From Candidatus Omnitrophota bacterium (GTDB lineage: Bacteria; Omnitrophota; Gorgyraeia; Gygaellales; Profunditerraquicolaceae): DNA of 64,000 nt. Within the stretch, counting starts at the first letter, position 1; each line of letters begins with the position of its first letter. Shown here in pieces: positions 55,940-58,220 of this stretch. A program made the translations under genes and the position numbers. The DNA is taken from assembly GCA_041653115.1 (NCBI GenBank), contig JBAZGA010000003.1:1832-65831 (forward strand), written 5' to 3'. The notes beneath the pieces are model-generated. The model made no database searches, had not been told where the DNA came from, and was given only the letters and a program-made list of their open reading frames with translations.

Positions 55940-57031
55940 TTATTGTTTTTCATTCTGTTGCGCCTCCTTCTCTTTTTTTAAAATATCAAGTTTTATTCTT
56001 TCGTAGACTTTTTTTCGAATTCTGGCCTGCCTGCAGCTCTCCGCCAGGGGAGATTTCATATTGCCCTCTTCCAAAAAAGCCTCGCAAGGACACCTGAAAC
56101 AAAAAAGAAAAAAATCGCAATCTTTGCACGCCGGCAGGTCCGACCATTTCAAAGACCTGATTCTCTGGAATTCTTCGGCATCTTTCCAGACCCTGGCAAA
56201 GGAATCTTTTTTCAAATTGTACCGCCCCAGATGCAAACGGATGCACGGGTTGAGGTCGCCGTAAGGGGTTATCGCGGCGATAGTCCTGCCAAAATCGCAA
56301 ATTATATTATCTTTGCGCAAAGAACGCTCCAAAGCCGGGTCCCAACCTGAAAAAAGCCCCCGGGAAAAATCTTCCGCCATAAATTTTTCCAACTGGCTGT
56401 CCGAGAGGCGATAAGATAAGGGGATTCTCGAATGGTCATTTCTGGCGTAAATAAGCGGGCTACTTCTATGAAAGGTTGCCCCCAAATCCTTGCTCATCCT
56501 CTCTATATCAAAGACTTCGTTTATGTTTTCCCGGGTAACCACGGTTTTGATTACTACCGCTATTTTTCTTTCTACAAGAAGACGGATACCCCTGATCACC
56601 CGGTCGAAACTCCCCGAGAGTGCGGTGATCTTTTCGTAAGTTTCTTTTTTTGCGCCGTACAAACTTATTTCCGCGGATAGCGGCCGCAGCTCCATGACCT
56701 GGTCGGCAAGATGAGAAGTAACGAGCGTGCCGTTGGTTAAAAGCCGGAGAGTAAATCCTTTTTTTCTGGCGTATCCGGCGATATCAAAAAAATCGCGCCG
56801 CAGGAAGATTTCTCCTCCGGTAAAGGTCAAATGAATACAGCCGGCCTCTGCCAGCTGATCAAGTATTGCATAGACCTCTTCGCTGGTAAGCTCCTTTCTT
56901 ATCCTGTCTTTCATTACATAACAGTGAGTACATTTTAAGTTGCAATTATAAGTGAGCTCAAAAAAAACGTTAAGGGGAATGGATTTCATTCTGGCATTAT
57001 TAAGTATATCTTTATAAGAGGTCTTTAACAT
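55940..57031 (-). CDS. Radical SAM/SPASM-domain maturase
   Basis: 363 aa. CNLKCTHC (Cx3Cx2C), plus a C-terminal SPASM Cys cluster CKDCDFFLFCFRCPCEA. Confidence 0.8.
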   Translation of the reverse strand: MLKTSYKDILNNARMKSIPLNVFFELTYNCNLKCTHCYVMKDRIRKELTSEEVYAILDQLAEAGCIHLTFTGGEIFLRRDFFDIAGYARKKGFTLRLLTNGTLVTSHLADQVMELRPLSAEISLYGAKKETYEKITALSGSFDRVIRGIRLLVERKIAVVIKTVVTRENINEVFDIERMSKDLGATFHRSSPLIYARNDHSRIPLSYRLSDSQLEKFMAEDFSRGLFSGWDPALERSLRKDNIICDFGRTIAAITPYGDLNPCIRLHLGRYNLKKDSFARVWKDAEEFQRIRSLKWSDLPACKDCDFFLFCFRCPCEAFLEEGNMKSPLAESCRQARIRKKVYERIKLDILKKEKEAQQNEKQ

Positions 57032-57042
57032 TTTTGCCGTAA

Positions 57043-57327
57043 TTAAAACGATATCAAATCTTTCTTTCCCAGGTTTAGAATAAATTTCGCGACTTCGGCA
57101 AAGGCCTCGCCGCGGCTGATTTCAAACTCTTCGTATATTTCCCGGACAATCTCTTCGATTGTTCTTTTTCCGTCTAAAAGTTCCCAGACCCGCGTGCCGG
57201 TCTGATTAAAAATATTTATCTCGGCCGGCTGTTTTTTAAGGTGTATCACCACGGCCTGACCTTCAATTATTCTAGAGGCGGTATCTGTACTCTTAAAAGG
57301 TATCTTGTCTTTCAGCTGCGCTTCCAT
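57043..57327 (-). CDS. PqqD-family protein (RiPP recognition element/peptide chaperone)
   Basis: 94 aa. NQTGTRVWELLDGKRTIEEIVREIYEEFE...VAKFILNL fits the PqqD consensus. Confidence 0.75.
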   Translation of the reverse strand: MEAQLKDKIPFKSTDTASRIIEGQAVVIHLKKQPAEINIFNQTGTRVWELLDGKRTIEEIVREIYEEFEISRGEAFAEVAKFILNLGKKDLISF

Positions 57328-57330
57328 TAT

Positions 57331-58158
57331 TTAGTTAATTACACGCCAAACGCTTTGGTCCGGGATAAACCCCAATTTAAAACAGGGTATTTTTTTTGTG
57401 ATTTCAGAACAAATTTCAAACGTGTTTGCCGTTGCCTTGGGGTCCCAAAAAGGAAAAAAGCTGTTTCTCATCAAATCAACAGCCGGAAATAAACCTTTAA
57501 GGGGCGTAATAAAATTGCGTTTTGCCTTTTGCAGAAAAAAAATCCTGCTGATGGCTGCTCCCTGAGAAGAAACGCTTTTTTTTATCTTATCGTTACCATG
57601 CCACCAGGGATTGCCGAATACCCTAAAAATATTCCCGTATTTCCGGATAATGATTTTATCGTCGCTGATCAACGTCCTGTCCCCGCATAAATTAGCCAGG
57701 GTGGATTTGCCGCTGCCGGATGGCCCTACGAACAAAAAGGCGTCTTTGCCGTCCAAGACCCCGCAGGAGTGGAGCATAATACCTTTCTTTTCCCGGCTCA
57801 ATAAAGAAGTCAGCAACATTACCGGAAATGGAAAAAGTAAAAGTTGTGATTCGGGGTTTCTGGTAAAAAATTCCGCTGATTTAAAATCCGGGCCAAGCAA
57901 GGCCAGGGCTCCTTTATAAAAAAGGAAAAAATAACAGCCGTCCCCCTGTGCGAATTTCCAGCTGATGTTCTTGCAAATCAACCTCTTATTATAGGGTTCT
58001 CTATAATCGCCCTGCTTAACGGTTATAGAGAGCTGCGGTTTCTTTCTGGAGAGAAAGCTCTTGTAATAGTTAAGGATATTCCGCCGCATTTCACGATGAT
58101 TAACTTTAAGAGAAATACAAGTCTTTGCTATTTCTATCCTTAGCTCATCTTTATGCAT
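57331..58158 (-). CDS. HPr-kinase-C-terminal-domain-like P-loop kinase
   Basis: 275 aa. FLFVGPSGSGKSTLANLCGDRTLISDDKIII parallels HprK GDSGIGKSE...L..DD. GGAG RBS. Its stop lies 3 nt from the pqqD-like start. Confidence 0.68.
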   Translation of the reverse strand: MHKDELRIEIAKTCISLKVNHREMRRNILNYYKSFLSRKKPQLSITVKQGDYREPYNKRLICKNISWKFAQGDGCYFFLFYKGALALLGPDFKSAEFFTRNPESQLLLFPFPVMLLTSLLSREKKGIMLHSCGVLDGKDAFLFVGPSGSGKSTLANLCGDRTLISDDKIIIRKYGNIFRVFGNPWWHGNDKIKKSVSSQGAAISRIFFLQKAKRNFITPLKGLFPAVDLMRNSFFPFWDPKATANTFEICSEITKKIPCFKLGFIPDQSVWRVIN

Positions 58159-58192
58159 TCGGCAAACTCCGGGAAAAATAATCTTTACTAAT

Positions 58193-58220
58193 ATAGTATC
58201 ATCCTGGCTATAAAAGTCAA
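58193..58220 (-). promoter_or_regulatory. Sigma70-like promoter of the HprK-like/PqqD/rSAM unit
   Basis: Minus strand: TTGACT, 16 nt, TACTAT, in the 70-nt ksgA to HprK-like spacer. Confidence 0.45.

Follow-up and report, generated by a model that had tools for sequence, protein, structure and literature searches.

The locus described here raises the question of which peptide, if any, is processed by a compact set of three genes in a Candidatus Omnitrophota bacterium (assembly GCA_041653115.1), which encode a P-loop protein resembling HPr kinase (HprK), a stand-alone PqqD-family protein and a radical S-adenosylmethionine (rSAM) enzyme with a SPASM domain. The genes lie on the minus strand of a stretch of 64,000 nucleotides (nt), positions 1,832 to 65,831 of contig JBAZGA010000003.1, and this whole stretch is referred to as the window. 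An earlier note on this DNA, made from the sequence alone, had taken them for an operon for peptide or cofactor maturation with no visible precursor peptide. Our answer, to which we assign a probability of about 0.7 on the basis of sequence comparison, is that the locus is a cluster for a ribosomally synthesised and post-translationally modified peptide (RiPP) of a widespread, experimentally uncharacterised type, in which the PqqD protein, the rSAM enzyme, the putative kinase and a peptidase of family S26 would have the roles set out below. The cassette family as such is already catalogued but functionally unstudied; what is new here is a precursor family and a testable mechanism.

The candidate precursor and the peptide family

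The statement of the earlier note that no open reading frame (ORF) could be the substrate holds literally for ORFs of 60 amino acids (aa) or more, but a search for short ORFs found one of 51 aa behind the rSAM gene (MKNNKTEKRLKAKKKKKWETPFVIVEDCDTLSKDAFTVASMRRCLPEQIYA; Table 1). Its ATG and the rSAM stop codon overlap by 14 nt, and an independent gene caller, run on another assembly of this DNA (L004), predicted the ORF as well. The peptide has a Lys-rich leader with the motif W-E-T-P, and its C-terminus reads ...CLPEQIYA. When the window was searched with a leave-one-out hidden Markov model (HMM) of the peptide family, only this one of the 545 ORFs with 25 aa or more was matched (E = 0.0011; next 0.84), and in the family alignment its Pro21 stands in the only invariant column and its Cys28 and Cys44 in two of the three near-invariant columns. 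The ORF also occupies the same position as the precursors of the related loci L005 and L009/L010. We regard it as the probable precursor and as a member of the family, of which the window copy is a minimal, divergent representative: its peptide does not end in Ser, neither a gene of the NTP_transf_5 family nor a second precursor was found in the window, and no exporter of the ATP-binding cassette (ABC) type is present among the neighbouring genes scanned there.

For the comparison with other genomes, one genome per species was scanned with an alignment of the rSAM enzyme, which yielded 80 loci from groups including Omnitrophota, Chloroflexota, Acidobacteriota, Planctomycetota, Verrucomicrobiota, Desulfobacterota, Chlorobium and Nitrospinae; HMMs were built from the first loci and then run on all 80. 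Genes for PqqD and for the P-loop protein, called ScmC-like here after its Pfam family, stand beside the rSAM gene in 56 of the 80 loci, and a recognisable small peptide accompanies them in 47 of these 56. An S26 peptidase homologue is found beside the rSAM gene in 33 of the 80 and an NTP_transf_5 protein (PF14907) in 26, and ABC exporter genes often accompany the set as well. The same gene neighbourhoods recur in L005, L008 and L009/L010, and for the kinase-like and rSAM proteins the closest homologues show the same arrangement, each with a small called ORF by the PqqD or rSAM gene. Some relatives carry two rSAM enzymes, and the most distant rSAM matches, mostly from Bathyarchaeia, are without any partner gene. 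The cassette is thus co-conserved across phyla and belongs to a large family rather than being a one-off, and the objection foreseen in the earlier note, that the three proteins might not travel together in other genomes, fails. Its reading as a peptide maturation system is borne out by the co-conserved PqqD, rSAM/SPASM and HprK-like set; the extent of three genes was too short, as the precursor and the S26 peptidase also belong to the cassette.

The small peptides of these loci resemble one another. A curated set of 52 shares a Lys/Arg-rich N-terminus and the motif [W/Y/F]-x-x-P-x-[I/L/V], followed by a variable core, and in the homologous loci the leader motif takes the form K-K-[W/Y]-x-x-P-x-[I/L/V]. 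The core contains two Cys in 22 of the 52 peptides and three in 21. The last residue is Ser in 39 of the 52 and Thr in three, compared with Ser in 10.6% of 9,218 control small ORFs (binomial p = 2e-27), and the C-terminal Ser was a feature not used in the selection of the peptides. A profile search of a collection of 5.8 billion proteins added 35 further peptides, all of them unannotated and all 35 ending in Ser, and the leave-one-out HMM gave 65 peptide matches on the operon strand of the loci against two on the opposite strand. Among the NCBIfam and Pfam models, no family model was found for the candidate peptides. Whether a locus has ScmC or NTP_transf_5 showed no clear correlation with a C-terminal Ser in its peptide. 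As an observation apart, a peptide subfamily (L027:8126-8401 and L032:8207-8422) has a long Pro-rich core with a single Cys one to two residues from the C-terminus (...GTCL and ...GQCG) and no C-terminal Ser; ScmC is still present in these loci.

Several points weigh against this reading of the locus and its peptide. The 52 peptides were first chosen by a hand-written motif and by eye, and at least one of them belongs to another family: L052:8031-8192 from Anaerococcus, in a locus without ScmC, matches NF050043, the 'SSH motif RaS-RiPP peptide' (E = 8e-7), and an aromatic-x-x-Pro leader with a C-terminal Ser therefore also occurs in a separately named RaS-RiPP family. The window peptide is matched by the family HMM over its leader only (residues 1-28), ends in ...IYA instead of Ser, and has its first Cys 7 residues after the motif Pro (10 after the Trp), a gap of at least 15 in the relatives. 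ScmC is kept in nine loci, the window and eight others, whose peptide has no C-terminal Ser or Thr, so that phosphorylation of a C-terminal Ser cannot be the only role of ScmC. Lastly, the top NCBIfam matches of the rSAM enzyme are AhbD and MftC and not a thioether synthase.

Part of this would suit an alternative in which the 51-aa ORF is not the substrate and the cassette is orphaned or decaying, or acts on a peptide encoded elsewhere, the genomic rearrangement that brought in two genes for a PhnD-like protein and a UPF0280 family protein having damaged the original precursor. The missing C-terminal Ser and the core that the family HMM leaves unmatched are what such a history would leave, as are the lack of the NTP_transf_5, second precursor and exporter genes and the two unrelated genes, without homologues in 90 related loci, which part the precursor from the S26 peptidase. 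However, all three enzymes, like the peptidase, are intact with their catalytic motifs preserved, the ORF lies where L005 and L009/L010 have their precursors and is preceded by a GGAGG site, and it is the unique HMM match of the window with both conserved Cys present. We consider an orphan cassette rather unlikely and continue with the 51-aa ORF as the candidate precursor.

The enzymes and their proposed roles

The identities of the PqqD and rSAM/SPASM proteins given in the earlier note were confirmed by HMM searches. The 363-aa enzyme matches Radical_SAM with 82 bits and SPASM with 38.7 bits, carries CxxxCxxC at residues 30-37 and seven conserved C-terminal SPASM Cys, and no fused RiPP recognition element (RRE) was found in it. 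Its best NCBIfam scores are those of AhbD (138 bits) and MftC (131.5 bits, full-length alignment). The rSAM family profile has peptide maturases as its four best solved relatives, namely SkfB (111 bits), PqqE (87), CteB (72) and SuiB (62). The enzyme anSME is also among the solved relatives. A housekeeping function outside RiPP biosynthesis, for example heme synthesis of the AhbD type or anaerobic sulfatase maturation, with neighbours that are there by coincidence, could be read from the AhbD and anSME matches and from one homologue (P0029) that was automatically annotated as 'AdoMet-dependent heme synthase'. The AhbD match, however, covers the rSAM core only (residues 23-188) and lies far below the cut-off of 500, neither heme nor sulfatase genes occur among the scanned neighbours, and the neighbourhood of PqqD, ScmC and peptide is conserved across phyla, by which such a role is effectively refuted; we give it almost no weight. 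The enzyme is instead proposed to make one or more intramolecular cross-links in the precursor involving the two conserved Cys. Thioethers of the sactipeptide or ranthipeptide type would be the most likely chemistry, at roughly even odds, since two of the four best solved relatives make thioethers.

PF05402 clearly identifies the 94-aa protein as a PqqD domain (51 bits with a cut-off of 23.4), and its top NCBIfam match is the PqqD chaperone of lasso peptides (lasso_PqqD_Bac, 36 bits against a cut-off of 80). It would bind the aromatic-x-x-Pro leader and present the peptide; RREs generally bind leaders, as the B1 protein does in lasso pathways (PMC8498205).

A discrete PqqD protein with an rSAM/SPASM enzyme is also the arrangement of PQQ and mycofactocin synthesis, which suggests an alternative, already allowed for in the earlier note, in which the cassette makes no secreted natural product but, like PqqE/PqqD or MftC/MftB, matures a redox cofactor derived from a peptide. 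MftC is the second-best NCBIfam match of the rSAM enzyme, over its full length, PqqE is the second-best solved relative, and a conserved C-terminal residue recalls MftA, which has a C-terminal Tyr. However, the scores of the window proteins lie far below the cut-offs (MftC 131.5 against 265 bits, PqqE 110.6 against 381, PqqD 31.2 against 46), and the window peptide ends in IYA, not in Gly-Val-Tyr. The peptide cores are hypervariable except for the Cys and the C-terminal Ser, and instead of dehydrogenases the cassette is usually accompanied by a leader peptidase, an ABC exporter and a tailoring enzyme. A cofactor is improbable in our view, and a modified peptide is retained as the expected product.

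The 275-aa protein had been called an HprK-like kinase; as an HprK-like P-loop protein it is rightly designated where the fold is concerned. It has the features of an HprK_C/PEPCK-like fold, a C-terminal kinase fold containing a P-loop, with an upstream His and a downstream acidic motif, visible as LHSCG...GPSGSGKST...SDD, and among the ScmC-like homologues His130, the GxSGxGKST P-loop and Asp267 are invariant, in the order His, P-loop, acidic pair. Its membership of Pfam PF27840 'ScmC' (E<=1e-5) is taken from a precomputed listing. Where the designation is less secure is in the direct scores, which are marginal and far below the cut-offs: 26 bits for HprK_rel_B, 23.5 for ScmC, 21.7 for PEPCK_ATP and 20.9 for HprK_rel_A. 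A PDB search by sequence with the kinase profile gave generic P-loop matches only, and fold comparison was used instead. A scan of genome contigs with the kinase-like protein alone found nothing, and an alignment of six sequences had no stretch conserved enough for scanning. A word-index homologue search returned only six matches, but an exhaustive profile search showed a large family with 1,810 clusters at 50% identity and E<=1e-30 among 1.84 billion representatives. In one clade of loci (L083:2940-4895, with similar long ORFs in L075, L076, L078 and L081) the ScmC-like protein is apparently fused to an rSAM/SPASM enzyme, with a second rSAM gene nearby; the fusion was confirmed by scan in L083 only (651 aa). 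The peptides of these L083-type loci have three or four core Cys, and there are up to six in the related locus L085.

The ScmC-like enzyme is proposed to phosphorylate the peptide using ATP, in most family members at the conserved C-terminal Ser. In lasso pathways, HprK homologues phosphorylate the C-terminal Ser of the precursor, and a nucleotidyltransferase then glycosylates the phosphate (PMC8498205). A C-terminal Ser that is conserved and an NTP_transf_5 protein that is a frequent partner fit this lasso pair closely; where present, the NTP_transf_5 protein may decorate the C-terminal phosphate. A different function of the ScmC-like protein, as an ATP-dependent scaffold or activator of the rSAM step or as a kinase of a non-peptide substrate, would agree with its apparent fusion to an rSAM enzyme in some loci, with its persistence where the peptide has no C-terminal Ser or Thr, and with the marginal similarity to HprK-related models. 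Against such a function stand the strong and specific enrichment of the C-terminal Ser, which matches the specificity of the lasso HprK homologues, and the NTP_transf_5 partner, which matches the lasso pair of kinase and nucleotidyltransferase (PMC8498205), so that we judge it unlikely, though not negligible, and keep to a putative peptide kinase. Since the window peptide has no C-terminal Ser, the phosphorylation step is uncertain for the window copy: either the target of ScmC is an internal residue (Thr30, Ser32, Thr37 or Ser40), or ScmC has a further role.

Removal of the leader is assigned to the S26 peptidase homologue, which matches TIGR02228 with 54.6 bits (cut-off 51.85). The residues Ser34-Met-x-Pro, His71-Arg and Gly-Asp90, with the catalytic Ser, His and Asp, are invariant across 14 S26 homologues from cassettes, and by these motifs the enzyme is classified as a Ser/His peptidase of the SipW or archaeal type (S26B). 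In relatives, the homologue directly follows the rSAM or the peptide gene. The peptidase would take off the leader, and the ABC transporter, where present, would export the product. In an Omnitrophota-type locus (L008:7586-10527), the S26 peptidase is followed by a 728-aa B12-binding radical SAM protein and a stand-alone SPASM-domain protein of 148 aa.

A further step, which we put forward tentatively and hold to be less probable than not, is to regard the cassette of ScmC, PqqD, rSAM/SPASM and S26 as a widespread, undescribed RiPP class, in which a lasso-type module for recognition and tailoring has been recombined with radical-SAM cross-linking and a leader protease of the signal peptidase type. 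The module would consist of a leader with the aromatic-x-x-Pro motif, PqqD as a stand-alone protein, a kinase of HprK fold that acts on the C-terminal Ser, and NTP_transf_5 as the decorating enzyme. Peptides bridged at Cys and phosphorylated at the C-terminus would be the products, perhaps in phosphoglycosylated form. In a bolder variant, phosphorylation would activate this Ser, which would then undergo elimination or enter rSAM chemistry and give rise to a new cross-link. The view of the earlier note that the combination matches no characterised RiPP class stands in so far as no curated equivalog reaches its cut-off for the window set (SCM, GeoRSP, MftC, PqqE and AhbD are all far below) and no paper on a RiPP system with HprK and rSAM/SPASM was found, in a search outside of which most subscription journals lie, so that a prior description is possible; it needs to be qualified in that the kinase-like part is already the Pfam family ScmC, and a large one. 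If the main reading holds, a large gene family, at least 1,800 ScmC-like clusters (E<=1e-30) from Omnitrophota, Acidobacteriota, Chloroflexota, Desulfobacterota, Planctomycetota and other phyla, previously a 'cassette' without a known substrate, becomes testable, with a precursor family defined by its leader, conserved Cys and C-terminal Ser and with a concrete prediction for each enzyme. Phosphorylation of a C-terminal Ser by HprK homologues would then extend beyond lasso peptides, and parts for recognition and tailoring would be swapped between RiPP classes.

Operon layout and neighbouring genes

The features of the locus are listed in Table 1. The three packed minus-strand genes have spacers of 3 nt and 11 nt, as in the earlier note, which had also placed a sigma70 promoter of their own in front of them. 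The sequence TTGACT-16-TACTAT is indeed present, in the 70-nt gap between rsmA and the 275-aa gene; as a promoter it is weak evidence, because shuffled sequences also yield many such sites (23 in the scanned region compared with 15.3 +/- 3.5 in shuffles).

Table 1. Features of the cassette and its operon, in coordinates of the window.
Feature	Position	Strand	Basis
Sigma-70-like promoter candidate, TTGACT-16-TACTAT with TG extension	58193..58220	minus	9/12 matches
ScmC-family P-loop protein, HprK/PEPCK fold, putative peptide kinase, 275 aa	57331..58158	minus	ORF and domain matches
Stand-alone PqqD-family RRE, predicted leader-binding chaperone, 94 aa	57043..57327	minus	PF05402
Radical SAM/SPASM maturase, 363 aa	55940..57031	minus	Radical_SAM and SPASM domains
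GGAGG ribosome-binding site, 9 nt 5' of the precursor ATG	55963..55967	minus	direct sequence reading
Candidate precursor peptide, 51 aa	55798..55953	minus	ORF, GGAGG and peptide HMM
PhnD-like periplasmic binding protein	54903..55805	minus	in operon, outside conserved cassette
UPF0280 family protein	54141..54893	minus	in operon, outside conserved cassette
SipW/archaeal-type S26 peptidase homologue, putative leader peptidase	53689..54138	minus	TIGR02228

The S26 peptidase gene stands 1.7 kb downstream of the three-gene set and is separated from the precursor by the PhnD-like and UPF0280 genes. The start of the PhnD-like gene is uncertain (55853, 55805 or 55724), and its ATG at 55805 overlaps the TGA of the precursor (ATGCCTGA). 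The UPF0280 protein scores 266 bits with a cut-off of 271. Behind the peptidase follow a gene for a secreted protein of 486 aa with weak TPR and PI3/PI4-kinase matches and one for a SelD-related protein, which matches the 'putative sulfur metabolism' model NF038049 with 272 bits (cut-off 250). These four genes share a packed minus-strand run (50857..55853) with the cassette. They were rejected as members of the system and are treated as passengers, because the 90 related loci contain no homologue of any of them. A terminator-like hairpin (50533..50516) is located after the SelD-related gene, within the ORF of an EamA-family transporter.

Two side observations concern the wider window. Directly 3' of the gene run (48749..50846, minus strand) are the genes of this EamA-family transporter and of a metallophosphoesterase resembling purple acid phosphatases, and to connect them with exporting a phosphopeptide or with its dephosphorylation would be purely speculative. 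Positions 32001..36000 have a G+C content of 0.35-0.36, compared with about 0.44-0.46 elsewhere in the window, which may point to foreign DNA or to a block of specialised genes.

Comparison with known systems

The nearest named relatives are the in-silico systems SynChlorMet (SCM; ScmC, ScmD, ScmE, ScmF) and GeoRSP, which have the same types of components, a P-loop protein of the ScmC type, a PqqD homologue and an rSAM/SPASM enzyme. The SCM equivalogs (TIGR04248-04251) are far from being reached in the window, with 23.5 bits against 125 for ScmC, 28 against 100 for ScmD, and 103 and 82 against 400 each for ScmE and ScmF, and the same applies to the GeoRSP models for PqqD (28.5 against 100) and rSAM (87.5 against 400). 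Some relatives have two rSAM enzymes like SCM, whereas the window has one. Because of the low equivalog scores and the single rSAM gene, the window locus is not counted as a member of either system, and the possibility allowed for in the earlier note, that the set is one already named, is not supported. Four diverse relatives, including the Chlorobium locus, are also far below the SCM and GeoRSP cut-offs, and the assignment of the Chlorobium locus (L031) or others as true SCM cassettes was rejected on these scores. A further difference is that a precursor family can be named for the window-type cassette; to our knowledge, the text of the SCM models identifies no precursor.

With PqqE/PqqD and MftC/MftB, the cassette shares a discrete PqqD-family chaperone and an rSAM/SPASM enzyme, which is similar to MftC and PqqE over its full length. 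It differs from them by its variable cores, by the companions peptidase, exporter and kinase and by the lack of a PqqA- or MftA-like motif.

Sactipeptide and ranthipeptide systems (SkfB, CteB/SCIFF, PapB, AlbA) likewise have an rSAM/SPASM enzyme and an RRE acting on a small Cys-containing precursor, components that are all present here, and two of the three solved proteins that the rSAM family profile matches best are SkfB and CteB. However, the RRE is a separate protein here and not an N-terminal domain, and the cassette type further has a kinase, an S26 peptidase and a nucleotidyltransferase. None of the NCBIfam maturase models comes near its cut-off, and a thioether is only predicted for the cassette.

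Lasso leaders carry an aromatic-x-x-Pro motif, as do the peptides described here. The paeninodin leader model matches two of 38 family peptides, both below the cut-off, which is weak support for a shared leader. The absence of the class-defining lasso cyclase (Asn-synthase-like) and of the B2 protease (transglutaminase-like), pointed out in the earlier note, was confirmed by a scan of 19 ORFs in the region from 42.4 to 59.0 kb, and both are also missing from the precomputed Pfam lists of L005, L008 and L009; an rSAM/SPASM enzyme and an S26 peptidase are present instead. The cassette cores carry conserved Cys, and the window peptide differs in addition by its C-terminus without Ser. What the cassette has in common with the clusters of phosphorylated and phosphoglycosylated lasso peptides such as paeninodin and pseudomycoidin is the stand-alone PqqD-type RRE together with an HprK homologue, and the cassette family further shares with kinase-bearing lasso clusters the C-terminal Ser of most members, a nucleotidyltransferase of the NTP_transf_5 type and an ABC exporter.

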